A program made the translations under genes and the position numbers. A stretch of DNA of 64,000 bases from an uncultured Candidatus Saccharibacteria bacterium. Its GTDB lineage: Bacteria > Patescibacteriota > Saccharimonadia > Saccharimonadales > AWTP1-31. The stretch's first letter is position 1; each line of letters starts with the position of its first letter. Positions 43,413 through 50,723 of this stretch are shown piece by piece. The stretch covers positions 52,463 to 116,462 of the forward strand of contig CAZXTE010000003.1 of assembly GCA_964643545.1 (NCBI GenBank), given 5' to 3'. The notes under the pieces are model-generated. The model made no database searches and was not told the origin of the DNA. It saw only the letters and a list, made by a program, of their open reading frames with translations.

Positions 43413-46400
43413 TTATCTTTGACTTTTTTTACGGGGTGCCAAAGTTACTGCTAAGGCTAGTGTAGAACCGACAAACAGGAGTGCGGCCGCAATAGTTGGG
43501 TAGGCTTGCCCCGTTACTACGAGCGGCGGTGTACTTGTTGTTTCTCCAAGGACCTGTGGAATGCTTAGACTGTGGCTGTCCTGGTTGCAGGCTTGCACGC
43601 CCTTACTGTTGTTGATAGCAAGGAAACGGACGCCATCTACTGCAGCCTCTTCCTCGTTGTATTGTGCTGCATCGTAGCCACATGCTGTCACCGTGTTTAC
43701 AACGTCTGCTTTCTGGGATGACGGTATGACATAGTCTGCCGTGTAAACCCAGGTCTCGGCAAGGTCGAGTTTGTCATCGAGGTCTGTGTCACCGGAAACG
43801 TACGTGCCACTTCCTGTGAGTGAGTCAACAACAGTTAAGCTATTGAGAGCAACATCTCCAGTATTGGTGACGGTAAAGGTGTAGGTGACTGTAGAGCCAG
43901 CAGAGGCGGTGCTTGGGCCAGTCTTAACTACATTGATCGAAGGGTGGAGCACATCAAGAGTATGCTCGTCGGTTGCAGTTACTGTGGTTTCTGATGATGA
44001 GTCGGTCCCGCTTGCCACAACGTGATTGACAACATCTGCAACTTGCGGCGAAGGAATGGTGTAGCTGGCAGTGCACCAAGTAGACTCACCAACAGATAGT
44101 GTTGTTTTATTGCAGGTTTCTCCGGTAGCGATGTCATCGGCGATGCCTACATTATCGAGGTCTGTGTCACCGGTATTTGTAACCTGAAAATTGTAGGTTA
44201 CAGTGTCACCCTCGTGTGCTGTACTTGGGCCGTACTTAACTACGTTGATCGAAGGGTGGGGGATATCGTCGTTTGTAACGATACATGTCTTAGTTTCACC
44301 AACGGCTATTGTGCCGCTACAGTCTGGGCTAAGAGACATGGCGTAGCCACTATCGGCAAGTTCTCCAACAGTATAGCTACCTTCATTTAGGCCAATAGTT
44401 ACACCATCCTCGTTCCCGGCAAAGTTCGCTACTGTGGCTGTATTGCCACTGACTGTCATAGTAAAGTCACTGGGCTGTTTGCCTCCGCTGTTGTTGTTGA
44501 CCACAACTTTTTTGACTATGAGCTTGGGCTGAACTGCTGTGTTTGTAAGAGTACATGTTGCGTCATCAGCAAGACCCAATAGGACGCTAATAATGTCGTT
44601 ATTCATCGTACAGTCGCCAGAGACACCAGTAAAGATGTACCCGCTTTGAGATGTTTCGCTGACCGTATGAGCCCCCGCGTTGAACTGTGTTTTTACACCG
44701 CTGACAATGGGCGTGCCATCAACAAATAGCGGAAATGATGATGCTGCACGTGGAGGGCCGTAAGGGTTTACGACTACTTTTGTAACTGTCAATTTTGGTG
44801 CAATATCGTCATTGGTAATGGTGCAGACAACATTCTGGTTGTTAGCAAGTACAACAGGGTTGGCAACGACCTGTAGGTTAGCTTGATCAACACACTTGAG
44901 CTCGGTCTGAGTATAGCCGGCTTTTGCGTCTTCACTAATGAGGTATGTATTTGTCGGCAGTGTATATGTTGTCCCAGATGCTGAACCTACTGCAGGGCTA
45001 CCAGATACATCCACTCCTGATTGTTTGACGCGTAAGGTAAAGTCACTTGCTTGTGCTGTGCCGCCGTTGTTGTTCACCACGTTTTTGACAACCTTTAGTG
45101 TGCCCGTGTTCCGTGCGTTACATAGGGTGATCTGGCGTACTTGATTGCTTGTGACCGTCAGTGCAACCGGCAAAGACGTACCTTGCGGATTTGAACATGA
45201 ATAGTCAGTATTTGAGGTCGTGTACCATCCAGTAAAGTGGTAGCCACTTACGTTGTTCTCGCCAATCATATGACTGCCAGTGCTCACTTCTGAAACAGTG
45301 CTACCCATAGAGTTTGACCCACTGCCATCGATGCTCCATGTGAACCCGAGCCCATTCGCTACGGCATTGTCGCCGTCGTAGGTACCATTGCCATCAGTAT
45401 CTACTTTTTTATTAACTTTAATTGAACCCTTGCTGGGCGTATTGACGAATATACATGAAACGATATTTTCGTTGGCAACGGTAATGCCTATCACGCTACT
45501 TCCTTGCAGCGAGCCATTAACGGATGCGCCCGTACAGCTTGCAGAGACAAGCTGATATCCGTTCTGGGCAACCTCGTTAACACTATACGTTCCAGCATCA
45601 ACTTTGACGGCGACAGTTTGTCCATTGGCGCCAGTTACAGTTGCGGCAGGATTGCTTGGTGAGCCATTAATATCGAAAGACCAGCCTTGACCTGGCGTTT
45701 GATCATTCACCGTATTGAGGTTGCCGTCTTGATCGATGATCTTCTGTGTCGTGATCGTGCCACCACAAGTTTGTCTTGCAAACGTGGCAAGCTCTGCAGC
45801 TAGATTTGAGAAATCGGTTGTAATGACGTCAGAAGTCAGCACATTGCCCGTGTTAACATTTGGGCCAGAAATAGCCTGCAATCTTGAGACGGTTGGGCTG
45901 CCGATGCCTAGGGCAAGTATTCGGCTCCCACCTGTTTTGATGCTGTCAGCTACAGTTACGGCAGGGGCAAGATGTACGTTTGGCTGAGATGTATCATCGG
46001 GGCCAGCGCTACTGGCGGTAGGATCACCGTCAGAAGCAAACAGAACGAGATTTGGGTTAGTTCGATTTGGTAGCGTGCTCGCAGCTTTTGTCAGGCCATC
46101 TTGCCAGTTCGTATAACCGCCACCGACGGGGACGCCATTAATTGCAGTATTAACGTTCGCGATGTTGCTTGTAAAAGGCTGTATGACAGATGCCGAAGAG
46201 GCGAAACGAGTAACCGAAAACTGCGTTGGTGTTCCGGCGAGCGCATTTGTAAACGTAGTCATGGCAGTTTTCATCTGTCCCATCTCCGAACTGCTAATAC
46301 TGGTCGAGTTGTCTATAACAATAGCGATGTCTAGACCGCATGACTGTGGCAAGCTGGGGTTTGCCACGGGCTGTACGACGGCCGCTTGAGCAGCGACAGG

Positions 46401-46508
46401 TTGTGTCAGCAGAACAAATGCAGAAACAGGGCCAGCAACCTGTATTGCACTAAATAGTGTGGCTACAAATCCATTTGTAAGCCGTTTAATAATTTGATGG
46501 GTTGCCAT
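43413..46508 (-). CDS. 1031-aa surface protein: vWA domain, multiple prealbumin/SpaA-like fold domains, two DUF11 repeats, C-terminal sorting signal
   Basis: Signal peptide, MIDAS motif DNSTSIS, repeated KL.V.K.VVN...SDF modules, two HPSINVVK.GPST...VTNTGD repeats, and a terminal LVVTGQ plus TM plus PRKKSQR. Confidence 0.85.
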   Translation of the reverse strand: MATHQIIKRLTNGFVATLFSAIQVAGPVSAFVLLTQPVAAQAAVVQPVANPSLPQSCGLDIAIVIDNSTSISSSEMGQMKTAMTTFTNALAGTPTQFSVTRFASSASVIQPFTSNIANVNTAINGVPVGGGYTNWQDGLTKAASTLPNRTNPNLVLFASDGDPTASSAGPDDTSQPNVHLAPAVTVADSIKTGGSRILALGIGSPTVSRLQAISGPNVNTGNVLTSDVITTDFSNLAAELATFARQTCGGTITTQKIIDQDGNLNTVNDQTPGQGWSFDINGSPSNPAATVTGANGQTVAVKVDAGTYSVNEVAQNGYQLVSASCTGASVNGSLQGSSVIGITVANENIVSCIFVNTPSKGSIKVNKKVDTDGNGTYDGDNAVANGLGFTWSIDGSGSNSMGSTVSEVSTGSHMIGENNVSGYHFTGWYTTSNTDYSCSNPQGTSLPVALTVTSNQVRQITLCNARNTGTLKVVKNVVNNNGGTAQASDFTLRVKQSGVDVSGSPAVGSASGTTYTLPTNTYLISEDAKAGYTQTELKCVDQANLQVVANPVVLANNQNVVCTITNDDIAPKLTVTKVVVNPYGPPRAASSFPLFVDGTPIVSGVKTQFNAGAHTVSETSQSGYIFTGVSGDCTMNNDIISVLLGLADDATCTLTNTAVQPKLIVKKVVVNNNSGGKQPSDFTMTVSGNTATVANFAGNEDGVTIGLNEGSYTVGELADSGYAMSLSPDCSGTIAVGETKTCIVTNDDIPHPSINVVKYGPSTAHEGDTVTYNFQVTNTGDTDLDNVGIADDIATGETCNKTTLSVGESTWCTASYTIPSPQVADVVNHVVASGTDSSSETTVTATDEHTLDVLHPSINVVKTGPSTASAGSTVTYTFTVTNTGDVALNSLTVVDSLTGSGTYVSGDTDLDDKLDLAETWVYTADYVIPSSQKADVVNTVTACGYDAAQYNEEEAAVDGVRFLAINNSKGVQACNQDSHSLSIPQVLGETTSTPPLVVTGQAYPTIAAALLFVGSTLALAVTLAPRKKSQR

Positions 46509-46592: not shown

Positions 46593-48113
46593 TTAAATTT
46601 CGTGCATCAACGTTATTTTTGCGCCAATGCTGTTGAGTCGTGCTGCCAAATCTTCATAGCCTCGATTGATTGAATAGACATTGCGCAGAATAGATATGCC
46701 TGGGGCAGCGAGCATTGCAATAAGCAAAAGTACTGCCGGGCGCAAAGCTGGCGGGCAAACCACATCTGCCGCACTGAATTTGGTTGGTCCATCGACAAAT
46801 GCTCGGTGGGGGTCAGCTAACGTTACATTGACATTAAGTTTTCTAAGCTCTGTATAGTACAGGGCACGTTCTTCGTAAACCCAATCATGAATCAGGGTGC
46901 GTCCTTTTGCGACGGCACAGATGGGCACAAAATAGGGTAAGTTATCGATGTTGAGGCCAGGAAAAGTGTTGGGGTGAATCTTTTCATCCAACGCGACCAA
47001 TTGCCCATTATGCTTATGGATAAGGATATCAACCAGGTCTGTTTGCCCATTTTCAGCTTTGTACTTGGAGCTCACTTTAAATGTAAGCCCCATTTTCTTT
47101 AGTTTAAGTAGCTCAAGCTCAAGAAATTCTATGGGGCAACGTCGAACGGTAATTGATGAGTTTGTAACTACGGCTGCTGCGATAAACGTCATGGATTCTA
47201 TGGGGTCTTCTGCCGGAGCATAGGTGACATTTTTTCGGATGTCCCGAACGCCACGAACACGTAGGGTGCTAGTGCCTATCCCCTCGATCTTTACCCCTAG
47301 ACGACGCAAGAAAAAGCACACATCCTGAACCATATAGTTGGCACTGGCCATTTTTATAACCGTCTCTTCCTCAAAGCGTGCGGCTGCCATTAACAAGTTT
47401 TCGGTGGTAGTATCACCAGATTCGTACAACACAATTTCGGGCGTGTGCTTTTTGTTGACTGTGACGTGGTAATGCCCGGTTTTTGCCACTATGTCGACAC
47501 CAAGCTCTTCCAAGGCAAACAAATGTGGCTGAACAGTGCGCGTGCCCAATTTGCACCCCCCAGCATAAGGTATCTGAAAGGTGTCGAATAAGTGCATGAG
47601 CGGCCCCAGCATCATGATGACACTTCGTGTTTTACGAGCAGCAGCTTTATTCATTTTGCTGAGGTCTAGCTGAGCCGGAGGTCGAATTTCGATATCTCCA
47701 CCAGGTAGCCATTTAACTTGGACGCCAATACTCATTAAGACTTCGATGATGCGATTTACTTCCTCGATCTTGGGCATTTGTTTTAGGCGAGTTGTGCCTT
47801 TATTGAGTAACGCTGCGAAGAGCAGTGCCACGGCGGCATTTTTGGAAACTTTTGTGTCAATGCTACCACTTAGCTCTTGGCCGCCCTCAACACGGAAATT
47901 GAGCGAACTGCCCGAAATACTGATGATTGGTTTGTTCAGGACCTCGCTAATACGGCCGAGCGTTTCTAGACTGAGGTTCTGTTTGCCATGTTCTATACGG
48001 TTAACCGCCGACTGGCTGGTGTGAAGAAGACTGGCGAAGGAAGCCTGAGTAAGACCTCTTTCTTGTCGTATCTGGTAAATAAGTTGCCCTATTTTTTCGT
48101 TAGTAGTCGACAT
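46593..48113 (-). CDS. murA: UDP-N-acetylglucosamine 1-carboxyvinyltransferase fused to an N-terminal XRE-type HTH domain
   Basis: Residues 1-65 are a Cro/C1 HTH (IRQERGLTQASFASLLHTSQSAVNRIEHGKQNLSLETL). The rest is MurA (SKNAAVALLFAALL, active-site loop GGCKLGTRTV with the Cys retained). Confidence 0.88.
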   Translation of the reverse strand: MSTTNEKIGQLIYQIRQERGLTQASFASLLHTSQSAVNRIEHGKQNLSLETLGRISEVLNKPIISISGSSLNFRVEGGQELSGSIDTKVSKNAAVALLFAALLNKGTTRLKQMPKIEEVNRIIEVLMSIGVQVKWLPGGDIEIRPPAQLDLSKMNKAAARKTRSVIMMLGPLMHLFDTFQIPYAGGCKLGTRTVQPHLFALEELGVDIVAKTGHYHVTVNKKHTPEIVLYESGDTTTENLLMAAARFEEETVIKMASANYMVQDVCFFLRRLGVKIEGIGTSTLRVRGVRDIRKNVTYAPAEDPIESMTFIAAAVVTNSSITVRRCPIEFLELELLKLKKMGLTFKVSSKYKAENGQTDLVDILIHKHNGQLVALDEKIHPNTFPGLNIDNLPYFVPICAVAKGRTLIHDWVYEERALYYTELRKLNVNVTLADPHRAFVDGPTKFSAADVVCPPALRPAVLLLIAMLAAPGISILRNVYSINRGYEDLAARLNSIGAKITLMHEI

Positions 48114-48123
48114 TGGTACACCT

Positions 48124-48143
48124 AGTATACCGCCTACGGTATA
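48124..48143. promoter_or_regulatory. Perfect 8-4-8 palindrome GTATACCG-CCTA-CGGTATAC in the murA/glyA divergent region
   Basis: Read directly. It lies 11-30 nt upstream of the HTH-murA ATG (minus strand) and about 75 nt upstream of glyA. Confidence 0.5.
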
Positions 48144-48217
48144 CAGGTCAAGATTGTGTACAATAGATATATGCTGTAACACCACATGACATTCTGCAAA
48201 CAAAGGGGAGAGACATA

Positions 48218-49477
48218 ATGAAAGATAAAGACATTGCTCGGTTGATCAAAGCCGAGACGGCCCGGCAGCTTGAGGGACTAGAAATGATACCAAGTGAAAA
48301 TCATACATCAACGAGTGTATTGGCTGCATTGGGCTCACGATTAACGGATAAATATTCTGAAGGTTACCCGGGCATGAGGTACTACGGTGGTTGTGAGTTT
48401 GTAGACCAAGTAGAGAATATCGCACGAGACCGAGCCAAAAAACTCTTTGGCGTAGATCACGCCAACGTGCAACCATATTCGGGCTCGCCAGCCAATTTGG
48501 CTGTATATTTTGCACTGGTAGATCCGGGAGAAACTATTATGGGTCTGGATCTGTACTTTGGTGGCCATTTAACGCATGGACTAAAAGTGAACGTCTCTGG
48601 GCGTTGGTTCCATTCGGTTCAGTACAAAACGGGCAAGGATGGCTACCTCGACTATGATGCGATGGCGGAACTTGTCGATAAAGAAAAGCCAAAACTAATT
48701 TTTGTTGGCGCAACCGTGTATCCAAGAGTCTTTGACTGGAAGCGGCTCAGAAAAATTGCAGACCAGTGTGGCGCCTATCTTGTTGCTGATATTTCGCACA
48801 TTGCTGGTTTGGTCGCAGGTGGCGCCCACCCATCGCCAGCGGGTATTGCAGATGTTATTACAACGACGACCCACAAAACGCTTCGTGGCCCACGTGGTGC
48901 AATGATTCTTTGCAATGGTAAACCATCAACACCGCTAAAAAAGGTTGAACGAAGTCGCGAGAACTTGCCAAGTTTGATTGACCGCGCCATATTCCCGGGC
49001 CTTCAGGGTGGCCCACACAATCATCAGACCGCCGGTATCGCCGTCGCGTTAGGTGAAGCGTCTACGCCAGAATTCAAGGTGTATGCTCATCAGGTTGTCA
49101 AGAACGCGCAAACACTTGCAGGAGAACTCAGCAATAAGGGCTACCAGCTCGTTACGGGCGGAACCGATAATCACCTCATGTTGATTGACTTGAATAACAA
49201 GAAGGTTCGCGGGGCAGAAGCTGAGGATGCGCTTGGAAAAGCAGGGATTACCGTTAACAAAAACACCGTACCTTTTGATCCTCGTCCACCATTCGATCCA
49301 AGTGGTATCCGGCTTGGGACGCCCGCTCTTACAACTCGCGGCATGAAAGAAGCAGATATGTTACAGGTTGCAGAATGGATCGACCAGGCAATTAGGCACC
49401 ATCGTGACGATACGTATCTGGCCACTTTGCGTAAGCAAATCAAACAGTTTGCTATAGACTTTCCATTGCCGAGCTAA
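48218..49477 (+). CDS. glyA: Serine hydroxymethyltransferase
   Basis: SENHTS, the PLP site TTTTHKTLRGPRG, and overall length. Confidence 0.97.
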   Translation: MKDKDIARLIKAETARQLEGLEMIPSENHTSTSVLAALGSRLTDKYSEGYPGMRYYGGCEFVDQVENIARDRAKKLFGVDHANVQPYSGSPANLAVYFALVDPGETIMGLDLYFGGHLTHGLKVNVSGRWFHSVQYKTGKDGYLDYDAMAELVDKEKPKLIFVGATVYPRVFDWKRLRKIADQCGAYLVADISHIAGLVAGGAHPSPAGIADVITTTTHKTLRGPRGAMILCNGKPSTPLKKVERSRENLPSLIDRAIFPGLQGGPHNHQTAGIAVALGEASTPEFKVYAHQVVKNAQTLAGELSNKGYQLVTGGTDNHLMLIDLNNKKVRGAEAEDALGKAGITVNKNTVPFDPRPPFDPSGIRLGTPALTTRGMKEADMLQVAEWIDQAIRHHRDDTYLATLRKQIKQFAIDFPLPS

Positions 49478-49698
49478 GACCAGCGAAGCAATAATACAAT
49501 CAAAGCAATAATAGACAGGGGTAGCGACGCCAGCCAGCAGGCAAGAAACCACAGGGTTCTTGGTTTCATTCGAATTTCGTGTGAGTCGCCAAAAAAAAGT
49601 TTGCCACTAAAAATAAAACGCCGGACGCTTCGCTTTGCTTCTAGTAGCATCAAAAAGGGTGCAACAACAAACGCAATAAGTAAGATGTCAACAATCAT
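49474..49698 (-). CDS. Small membrane protein (74 aa)
   Basis: Two TM helices, overlapping stop/start junctions with murB and glyA. Confidence 0.5.
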   Translation of the reverse strand: MIVDILLIAFVVAPFLMLLEAKRSVRRFIFSGKLFFGDSHEIRMKPRTLWFLACWLASLPLSIIALIVLLLRWS

Positions 49699-50723
49699 CC
49701 AATAAGCTCCGGTTCTTGTACAAGCTGTACGTCAAATTTCTTGTGCACGGCCGTTATGATAGTGTCGCGGAATTTCAGTAAATCCTTAGTGGTTTTGGCG
49801 TGCTTATTTACAAGCACCAAGGGCTGAGATGGCCACGTTGCCATGCCTGTTTCTTTATCGCTAACGTTCTTAAATCCAGCATGTTCTATCAGCCATGCTG
49901 CCGATAATTTGATCTTAGTTTTGTCTACTTTCCAGTGAGGCATGTCGGGATATTTCTTTGCCAAGGCCTTGTACGATAATGTGCTGACAATTGGGTTCGC
50001 AAAAAAGGAACCATTATTTGCCATCTTTGCCGGGTCTGGCAGTTTGCTCGAGCGAATTGCAATAACTGCTTTCCGCAGTGTCCTAGGTGTTACTACATTA
50101 ATACGATGTTCGCGCAGGTAGTTTGCGACGGCAGGGTAATGAGGCGGTCGGGGGTTGATATGGCGCAACCGAAAGGTGAGCCCGACAATAACAAAACGCC
50201 CCTTGTCTCCAGTCTTAAAGCGGCTTGTTCGATAGCCAAAAGCACAGTTTTCGTTTGGTATTGTGACAAATTGTTTGTGGGTGGTGTCATATGCTTCGAC
50301 ACTCACTAAGCAGTCTGCTATTTCCTGACCATACGCACCAACATTCTGAACAGGTGTCGCGCCGCTAGTGCCTGGGATAAGGCTCAGTGCCTCAATGCCA
50401 TGCAACCCCGCAGCGACTGTTCTTTTTACGACACCATCCCAGTTCTCGCCAGCACCAACGCTGACGTAAGAGAACTCTTTGTCTTCCGGGTGAATTTTAA
50501 AGCCGAGTATATGGTTGACGATCACGAGCCCGTTATAGCCTTTATCGCCCCACACGATATTGCTACCACCCCCAATGACGATGGTTTTAAGCCTGTGTTC
50601 CTCTGCCCACGTTAACGCGTCGACCAAAGCATGTTTGTCGGAAATATGTACTAAATTGCGTGCCTTACCGCCGAGTCGCATGGTTGAGTAGTCTGCCAGT
50701 GCTATATCATTCTGAATGTCCAT
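49695..50723 (-). CDS. murB: UDP-N-acetylenolpyruvoylglucosamine reductase
   Basis: FAD-binding domain (TMRLGGKA, IGGGSNIV), GAGENW, and a C-terminal GSFFANP. Confidence 0.92.
   Translation of the reverse strand: MDIQNDIALADYSTMRLGGKARNLVHISDKHALVDALTWAEEHRLKTIVIGGGSNIVWGDKGYNGLVIVNHILGFKIHPEDKEFSYVSVGAGENWDGVVKRTVAAGLHGIEALSLIPGTSGATPVQNVGAYGQEIADCLVSVEAYDTTHKQFVTIPNENCAFGYRTSRFKTGDKGRFVIVGLTFRLRHINPRPPHYPAVANYLREHRINVVTPRTLRKAVIAIRSSKLPDPAKMANNGSFFANPIVSTLSYKALAKKYPDMPHWKVDKTKIKLSAAWLIEHAGFKNVSDKETGMATWPSQPLVLVNKHAKTTKDLLKFRDTIITAVHKKFDVQLVQEPELIG

Follow-up and report, generated by a model that had tools for sequence, protein, structure and literature searches.

What is a DNA-binding domain doing at the front of an enzyme of cell-wall synthesis? 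The question is raised by a gene on the minus strand (46593..48113) of a 64,000-nucleotide stretch of DNA from an uncultured Candidatus Saccharibacteria bacterium; this whole stretch is referred to below as the window. The gene encodes MurA fused behind a helix-turn-helix (HTH) domain of the XRE (Cro/C1) type. MurA, the target of fosfomycin, catalyses the first committed step of peptidoglycan synthesis. The known control of canonical MurA is post-translational, through feedback by UDP-N-acetylmuramic acid (UDP-MurNAc) and, in Firmicutes, through ClpCP/ReoM proteolysis. A first-pass annotation of the window suggested that the additional domain might provide direct transcriptional feedback or might be an anchoring module. 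Comparison of sequences favours the first option: a palindrome in the murA promoter is conserved, it co-varies with the recognition helix of the HTH, and both the HTH and the palindrome are kept in a clade in which the enzyme part has decayed. We think that HTH-MurA is probably bifunctional, an enzyme and also the repressor of its own gene. The fusion itself is already catalogued, in databases and in one supplementary table. What is new is the regulatory reading, with a conserved candidate operator, a likely autoregulatory circuit, and a series of relatives that appears to lead from enzyme to regulator.

An XRE domain and MurA in one reading frame

The HTH and MurA are encoded by a single, uninterrupted open reading frame (ORF) of 506 codons plus a stop codon. 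Read directly on the minus strand, the ATG is at 48113-48111 and the stop codon at 46595-46593, and there is neither a stop nor a frameshift between the two parts. Both domains scored above their Pfam cutoffs. HTH_3 matched residues 12-63 (53.3 bits versus a cutoff of 23, E 2.8e-14), HTH_31 also matched (32.9 bits versus 27), and EPSP_synthase (PF00275) matched residues 75-490 over positions 1-414 of its 417-position profile (155 bits, E 3.4e-45). The Cro/C1 HTH that the first-pass annotation had recognised at the N-terminus (its peptide, GLTQASFASLLHTSQSAVNRIEHGKQN, is residues 20-46) was thus borne out by a profile search, and the catalytic Cys loop that it had described as intact, GGCKLGTRTV, is present at residues 185-194. 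We rejected a longer, TTG-initiated ORF (536 amino acids, from 48203) as the true start. All homologues begin at M-x-T-T-N-E-K-I-G (MSTTNEK), and the conserved promoter and operator described below fall within the extension.

The fusion is not an assembly artefact. An error of sequencing or assembly might in principle have joined two adjacent genes, and a few database entries are indeed unfused (P0122, P0124 and P0125, at 41-58% identity); nothing else was found that would speak for such an error. Against it, the same continuous frame is present in hundreds of independent assemblies, in Nonomuraea isolates, and in Southlakia epibionticum. We scanned GTDB, with one genome per species, and found 577 matched stretches that encode a relative; the best 80 of these cover residues 1-506 at 64-100% identity and come nearly all from metagenome-assembled genomes (MAGs) of Saccharibacteria/Saccharimonadales. 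The best 120 database homologues, from Saccharibacteria or Patescibacteria, are 76-100% identical and about 506 amino acids long, and all of them carry both Pfam domains. Since these relatives span both halves, chance read-through is excluded, and we see next to no chance that the fusion arose from an error.

The N-terminal half is predicted to be a mobile DNA-binding domain. The HTH occupies residues 1-63 (47925..48113, minus strand) and is followed by a linker of residues 64-71 (47901..47924, minus strand), delimited by low confidence in the AlphaFold2 (AF2) model and by the beginning of MurA homology at residue 72. In the model the HTH is a bundle of four helices (residues 4-18, 23-30, 34-41 and 49-59). 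The mean predicted local distance difference test score (pLDDT) was 70 for residues 1-10, 80-88 for residues 11-60, and 57 for residues 61-70, dropping below 50 at residues 66-68. Because the modelled linker is flexible, the HTH is free in the model to reach DNA. The predicted recognition helix is residues 34-41 (QSAVNRIE; 47991..48014, minus strand). By column counts over an alignment of 136 diverse fusions, residues R16, Q23, T32, R39, E41, G43 and N46 are invariant, and Q34 and S35 are found in 135 of the proteins. The closest solved relatives of the domain are the designed protein DBP48 and four small XRE-type proteins, HipB(Lp), CylR2, C.BclI and C.AhdI (E 3e-5 to 1e-3 for the four).

The C-terminal half has the features of a working MurA. 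Residues 72-506 (46596..47900, minus strand) align over their whole length with MurA proteins of solved structure (E 5.5e-51). Scores with curated MurA models are mixed: the protein is above the cutoff of the NCBIfam subfamily model NF006873 (327.2 bits versus 297) and below those of two other models, given further on. K91, N92, R163, C187, R192, D390, D410, R416 and R458 are all present; in an alignment of solved MurA proteins and the 136 fusions these correspond to K22, N23, R91, C115, R120, D305, D369, R371 and R397 of the E. coli enzyme. The codon of the catalytic Cys187 reads TGC at 47553..47555 (minus strand); this residue corresponds to E. coli Cys115, which fosfomycin targets. The full catalytic set is kept in 160 of 167 loci, and the Cys187 equivalent in 129 of the 136 aligned fusions. 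The AF2 model had a mean pLDDT of 90.8, mostly above 90 in the MurA part, and a predicted TM-score of 0.84; Foldseek comparison with solved MurA structures gave target-normalised TM-scores of 0.88-0.92. The best structural match was PDB 9a7b, an integrative model of a MurA2-MurA1 heterodimer. Canonical MurA (from E. coli and Enterobacter cloacae; PDB 1UAE, 1NAW and 3SWD) has the same two-domain inside-out alpha/beta barrel and the same catalytic residues. It differs in lacking the 71 N-terminal residues of the HTH and linker, which are covered by no solved MurA chain, and some 14 residues that are inserted in the second half of the fused protein's MurA part; the identity is only about 27%.

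We asked whether the protein could be a regulator only, with a MurA-like sensor domain, the MurA activity being supplied by another gene. This seems to be the case in a clade of relatives (the P0128/P0138 clade, below) that have a canonical murA next door, and our inspection of this genome covered 64 kb. Within those 64 kb, tblastn revealed no second murA and no second copy of the HTH. The catalytic residues of the window protein are all intact, however, and it scored 327 bits with the MurA subfamily model, close to the 325 bits of a canonical neighbour (in locus L083) and well above the 235 bits of the decayed P0128. Furthermore, the orthologue in S. epibionticum, SEML1_0687 (1524 nucleotides, minus strand, listed with PF00275 and PF01381), is the sole entry named carboxyvinyltransferase in the genome-wide table, making it the only annotated murA of that organism, and it was called essential at all three passages of a transposon sequencing experiment (PMC10633639, including Tables S1 and S2). 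We regard a purely regulatory role for the window protein as highly improbable. Judging from these comparisons, the fused protein is probably a working MurA and the only one in the cell.

A candidate operator in the murA promoter

The murA promoter contains a palindrome that is a candidate binding site for the HTH. A promoter scan identified a sigma-70-like promoter, matched at 10 of 12 positions, with a -35 box TTGACC (48146..48151, minus strand), a 16-nucleotide spacer and a -10 box TATACT (48124..48129, minus strand); the TTGa of the -35 box is conserved at this place in relatives. The candidate operator, GTATACCG-CCTA-CGGTATAC (48125..48144, strandless), is a 20-bp palindrome with perfect 8-bp inverted arms. 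It fills the spacer between the two boxes, its right half-site overlaps the -10 box, and it ends about 10 nucleotides before the ATG. XRE-type operators are typically palindromes of this kind, in which the half-sites are spaced by roughly one helical turn, in the promoter of the regulator itself. Where the first-pass annotation had pointed to the murA/glyA intergenic region in general as the DNA to be bound, we would replace that region with this defined site.

The mRNA is probably leaderless or nearly so, because the ATG is only 9-10 nucleotides past the -10 box, giving a predicted 5' untranslated region of about 4 nucleotides. At the equivalent position in most loci (L001-L166) there is no Shine-Dalgarno sequence upstream of murA. 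Leaderless mRNAs are common for phage-type XRE repressors.

The site is rare in the window. It is the sole match to the 18-mer TATAYC-N6-GRTATA in the 64 kb (0.3 expected) and the sole site with a full score of 12 out of 12 in the scheme described below; no other such site was found there, and none specifically before murB or glyA. The best other site (128-143, ATACCCTTATTGGTAT, 11/12) falls within an ORF truncated by the left edge of the window and is probably a chance match.

The palindrome is conserved at a fixed position in relatives. Among 80 Saccharibacteria loci, the 18-mer was found exactly in 30 and with one mismatch in 23, and the operator ended 10-12 nucleotides before the ATG in 68; the exact 16-mer occurred almost nowhere else in the same loci. 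For a wider comparison we took 164 loci and scored, out of 12, a 16-mer with symmetric arms, AT..C.-N4-.G..AT, in the 60 nucleotides before each start. The score reached at least 11 in 87 of these upstream regions (53%); among 17,294 control windows drawn from the loci themselves, the figure was 0.22%. Sites with perfect arms numbered 70 in 1.16 Mb compared to 1-12 in shuffled sequences. In L083, a locus from elsewhere in the Candidate Phyla Radiation (CPR), the arrangement is TTGACA-at-ATATCATATATGATAT with the ATG 12 nucleotides on, and the operator in L102, L118 and L128 is likewise ATATCATATATGATAT. The element is also kept in genomes of 61-77% GC. In Nonomuraea (70% GC) it reads CATCTCATATGTGAGATA, 12 nucleotides before the ATG, and overlaps the end of the upstream gene.

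The two half-sites vary together, and they vary with the protein. Variants shift on both sides of the palindrome (ATATCA/TGATAT, ATCTCA/TGAGAT, ATAGCA/TGCTAT and ATACCG/CGGTAT). The free pair 4-13 was complementary in 65% of sites, which had been chosen on the fixed core, versus a mean of 43% and a maximum of 58% in 2000 shuffles. A strict Y/R co-variation that we looked for by eye within the Saccharibacteria sites was weak and was dropped; the symmetry is clear only in the CPR-wide set. On the protein side, variants at residues 33 and 36-38 track the operator variants, with 'TTQS' recognition helices going with ATAGCA/ATCGCA sites and 'SSIPR' helices with ATCTCA sites.

In one subclade there is a second perfect palindrome, ATATCAGC(C/T)TTGATAT, about 118 nucleotides into the part of the gene that codes for the HTH (L130:3619-3634, L148:541-556, L153:975-990, L155:3619-3634 and L162:1006-1021). 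This second site may serve as an auxiliary operator, or it may simply reflect the codons for N-I-S-L-D-M.

The symmetry of the element raises the possibility that it is a feature of the promoter, or an RNA or DNA hairpin, unrelated to the HTH, which would then act elsewhere or be vestigial. A hairpin would likewise show symmetric co-variation, and the right arm is partly accounted for by the -10 box. However, specific bases are conserved (AT-x-x-C ... G-x-x-AT), and not pairing alone, and the stem would be weak, with 6-8 AT-rich base pairs, in an element upstream of the predicted transcription start. Moreover, the element is essentially absent from about 1.1 Mb of flanking DNA holding many other promoters, and it accompanies the gene into Nonomuraea despite the high GC content there. 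We consider an origin unrelated to the HTH quite unlikely.

The same observations bear on the anchoring option, in which the HTH would be a protein-protein or localisation module that tethers MurA to the machinery of cell-wall synthesis. XRE-type folds are reused for protein contacts; in RodZ, a membrane protein, an XRE-type HTH is a protein-binding module that binds MreB. RodZ resembles HTH-MurA in having an XRE-like HTH on a protein related to the cell wall, and the four-helix bundle of the AF2 model, without an obvious dimerisation helix, would suit a role in protein contacts. In contrast to RodZ, HTH-MurA has no signal of the RodZ-type family HTH_25, which was not among the matches of the window protein at E<=0.01, whereas HTH_3, HTH_31 and HTH_19 were, and it has a candidate palindrome in its promoter. 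No long extra helix fit for a membrane anchor was seen in the DSSP assignment of the AF2 model, though no dedicated transmembrane prediction was run. The residues expected to read DNA (T32, R39, E41 and N46 in all 136 fusions; Q34 and S35 in all but one) are those that are conserved, and anchoring would leave a symmetric palindrome at a fixed distance, and its co-variation with the helix, unexplained. Because the palindrome is conserved from Saccharibacteria to other CPR bacteria and to Nonomuraea, and co-varies with the recognition helix, we favour feedback over anchoring; a RodZ-like, protein-binding role is disfavoured, and we judge it very unlikely.

If the HTH does bind the palindrome, it might do so as an activator or as a factor that alters promoter architecture (for example, by remodelling the spacer) and not as a repressor. 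Many loci have spacers of 15-16 nucleotides and imperfect -35 boxes, and some XRE controllers (C proteins, and lambda cI at PRM) switch on their own leaderless genes when they are scarce. On the other hand, a site in the core promoter that overlaps the -10 box is in the classical position for steric repression, activators of the class II or PRM-like kind sit upstream of or abutting the -35 box, and most loci have a single site per promoter. Activation is unlikely in our view, and repression remains the reading that we prefer.

Spread of the fusion and decay of the enzyme part

The fused architecture extends far beyond the genome in which it was noticed. In a search of 1.84 billion cluster representatives, full-length fusions were found down to 32-43% identity, and the HTH was confirmed by Pfam in eight of nine full-length distant fusions that we checked. 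The exception, P0127 (529 amino acids, 43% identity), has kept the Cys loop, and no Pfam HTH was detected in its N-terminal 80 residues; here the DNA-binding half, rather than the enzyme half, may be decaying. A search seeded with the distant fusion P0128 gave at least 120 more fusions, from sources that include Liptonbacteria, Paceibacterota, Taylorbacteria, Colwellbacteria, Parcubacteria and Doudnabacteria. A scan of metagenomes added 523 matching stretches, bringing the fused architecture to more than 1,000 matched stretches overall. About 15 loci with 61-77% GC carry the fusion. Among the few unfused relatives named above, P0124 (locus L082) is preceded by a tRNA gene and lacks an operator of the murA type. 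Three contigs (L016, L041 and L042) filed under Chloroflexota MAGs (Candidatus Limnocylindria/Limnocylindrales) encode an HTH-MurA that is 70-79% identical to the Saccharibacteria protein, and are most likely mis-binned Saccharibacteria contigs.

Since fused relatives are found across these lineages and few are unfused, the fusion is the usual form of MurA in Patescibacteria; it has been lost in places and has spread to some extent beyond them. The first-pass annotation had thus seen a real architecture, but one that is no peculiarity of a single genome. Full-text searches found no description in the literature of an HTH-MurA fusion or of MurA as a trigger enzyme. In the databases the proteins carry the automated annotation 'helix-turn-helix domain-containing protein' or MurA. 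The Cell 2023 paper on S. epibionticum gives the Pfam hits for the fused gene in a table only, and not in the text (PMC10633639).

Outside the Patescibacteria, the fusion is present in cultured Nonomuraea (Actinomycetota), as a cluster of 246 sequences with 58% identity to the window protein. In Nonomuraea sp. NEAU-A123 (JAHFZZ010000002.1; L081:5971-7530), HTH-MurA is beside a phage-integrase gene and another XRE gene. It looks as if a cassette of promoter, operator and gene has moved horizontally between Saccharibacteria, which are epibionts of Actinobacteria, and an actinomycete.

In one clade of fusions the enzyme part has decayed and the HTH and operator have not. In seven aligned sequences (P0128, P0132 and P0286-P0290) the Cys loop is gone, as are the equivalents of E. 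coli R91, R120 and R397, and those of D305, D369 and R371 (D390, D410 and R416 of the window protein) remain. The Cys loop also appeared degraded by eye in P0138, P0147, P0150, P0173 and P0181, and its loss was confirmed by alignment for P0138 (L086) and P0150 (L085). All loci that we fetched for the P0128/P0138 clade have kept the HTH and the operator, the latter at the same position before the ATG. These pseudo-MurA genes are divergent from a canonical murA-murB pair (L083, L084, L086 and L167) or from Mur-ligase genes (L168 and L169), with a canonical murA further along in L169, and Mur-ligase or ddl genes lie downstream of the pseudo-MurA in the clade. The head-to-head loci are L083:2624-5503, L086:2558-5530, L167:2619-5536, L168:2547-5518 and L169:95-5003. 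We considered an adjoining canonical murA as a general trait of HTH-MurA and rejected it, finding one only in the clade with the dead enzyme (L083, L084, L086, L167 and L169) and not in 80 metagenome loci.

The decayed proteins share with the window protein the two-domain architecture, the type of operator, and its position before the ATG. They differ in the loss of the Cys loop and the arginines that bind phosphoenolpyruvate (PEP), and in having a separate canonical murA-murB or Mur-ligase operon alongside. With a separate MurA present, selection keeps the HTH and operator while the chemistry decays, and retention of both despite this decay is what would be expected of a fusion with a regulatory role in its own right. 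The decayed fusions are probably pure pseudo-enzyme regulators of mur operons, to judge from their sequences and surroundings. We conjecture that the three residues that are invariant even in the dead members fit a retained ligand site. By analogy with the heterodimer model 9a7b, a decayed HTH-MurA might also be in contact with the canonical MurA of the adjoining gene, if MurA paralogues can pair.

Probable autoregulation, neighbouring genes and known systems

Several points weigh against the idea that HTH-MurA represses its own gene. Many XRE proteins dimerise through a fifth helix, which the AF2 model of the HTH does not have, and MurA enzymes are usually described as monomers. The first-pass annotation had looked to a structure prediction for signs that the HTH could dimerise; in our monomer model the flexible linker frees the domain, and the bundle has only its four helices. 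About 47% of the 164 loci scored below 11/12 within 60 nucleotides; some of these have a site further upstream or a misjudged start codon, and others have degenerate sites. The loci are phylogenetically related, and both the shuffle tests and the association of helix with operator overstate their independence. Because the right half-site lies partly over the -10 box, some of its conservation is that of the promoter, leaving the left half and the symmetry as the independent evidence. A wider regulon was considered and rejected for the window, in which no other high-scoring site was found near genes. Finally, on the side of the enzyme, the protein is below the cutoff of the strict equivalog model TIGR01072 (312 bits versus 392.7); it is also below that of NF009470 (222 bits versus 552), and canonical CPR neighbours score likewise on MurA models.

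Even with these points counted, we believe that HTH-MurA is probably a bifunctional enzyme and autorepressor, based on the conserved palindrome, its co-variation with the helix, and its retention with the HTH in the decayed clade. In the mechanism that we propose, residues 72-506 would work as MurA, the UDP-N-acetylglucosamine (UDP-GlcNAc) enolpyruvyl transferase. Two fusion proteins would bind the palindrome of about 20 bp as a dimer through their HTH domains, and the bound domains would occlude the -10 box and the spacer, block RNA polymerase, and so repress murA. The amount of MurA would then limit further murA transcription, a form of negative autoregulation. More speculatively, binding to DNA might be tuned by the MurA module, through its open or closed state and its occupancy by UDP-GlcNAc, PEP or UDP-MurNAc. 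MurA opens and closes on UDP-GlcNAc and is locked by UDP-MurNAc.

A more far-reaching version joins these parts. HTH-MurA would be a metabolite-sensing switch in which the open or closed state of MurA, set by UDP-GlcNAc, PEP and UDP-MurNAc, determines affinity for the operator, such that transcription of murA, and in the decayed clade that of whole mur operons, follows demand for precursors; it would be the main, ancient control of peptidoglycan synthesis in Patescibacteria, and its cassette would have been transferred between Saccharibacteria and their actinobacterial hosts (Nonomuraea). We put this forward tentatively, as a possibility that we would not expect to hold in full.

The divergent neighbour of murA is glyA, encoding serine hydroxymethyltransferase (48218..49477, plus strand; Pfam SHMT, E 1e-164), as the first-pass annotation had it. 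In S. epibionticum, murA and glyA (SEML1_0687 and SEML1_0688) are head to head as in the window, and glyA was called non-essential at passages one and two and growth-defective at passage three (PMC10633639, including Table S1). The upstream neighbour varies among loci, and glyA is probably not the primary target, because it is not conserved beside murA in most other loci. The gene for the next enzyme of the pathway, murB (49695..50723, minus strand; Pfam FAD_binding_4 and MurB_C), is two genes from murA, and the window scan found no operator-like site of 12/12 upstream of it. Directly downstream of murA (43413-46508, minus strand) is a gene for a 1031-residue protein that has a signal-like segment at its N-terminus and a hydrophobic anchor at its C-terminus, together with a VWA domain and several repeats of the SpaA/prealbumin-fold and DUF7507 types. 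The protein resembles a large surface adhesin and is of possible interest for the epibiotic lifestyle.

If HTH-MurA is an autorepressor, it would represent a new and very compact control circuit for cell-wall synthesis, and one that is the rule across the CPR/Patescibacteria superphylum, whose members are mostly uncultured and have very few transcription factors. The circuit is directly testable, with a defined 20-bp site, a soluble protein, and a genetically tractable organism, S. epibionticum, in which the orthologue is essential. The decayed clade would show an enzyme turning into a dedicated regulator, and the Nonomuraea copy is a hint that genes have passed between epibionts and actinobacterial hosts.

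The DNA-binding half is most similar to small XRE autorepressors. The controller C proteins of restriction-modification systems (C.AhdI and C.BclI), HipB and CylR2 bind as dimers to palindromic operators that overlap the promoters of their genes; the genes for C proteins often lack a leader. These proteins include the closest solved relatives of the HTH, and HTH-MurA likewise has a candidate operator on the -10 box, with the ATG about 10 nucleotides on. They are, however, stand-alone proteins of 65-80 amino acids, whereas the HTH of HTH-MurA is without the fifth helix and is tethered to an enzyme of 435 residues.

By analogy, the closest functional counterparts of HTH-MurA, which is known here from its sequence, would be the enzyme-repressor fusions called trigger enzymes: BirA (biotin ligase with a winged HTH), PutA (proline dehydrogenase with a ribbon-helix-helix domain) and NadR (nicotinamide mononucleotide adenylyltransferase with an HTH). 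These have an N-terminal DNA-binding domain on a metabolic enzyme and an operator in a promoter of their own pathway, which makes the enzyme its own regulator; the logic would be the same for HTH-MurA with its candidate operator. They differ from it in the enzyme, the pathway and the class of DNA-binding domain, and control by ligand, which has been shown for BirA, PutA and NadR, is for HTH-MurA a conjecture.

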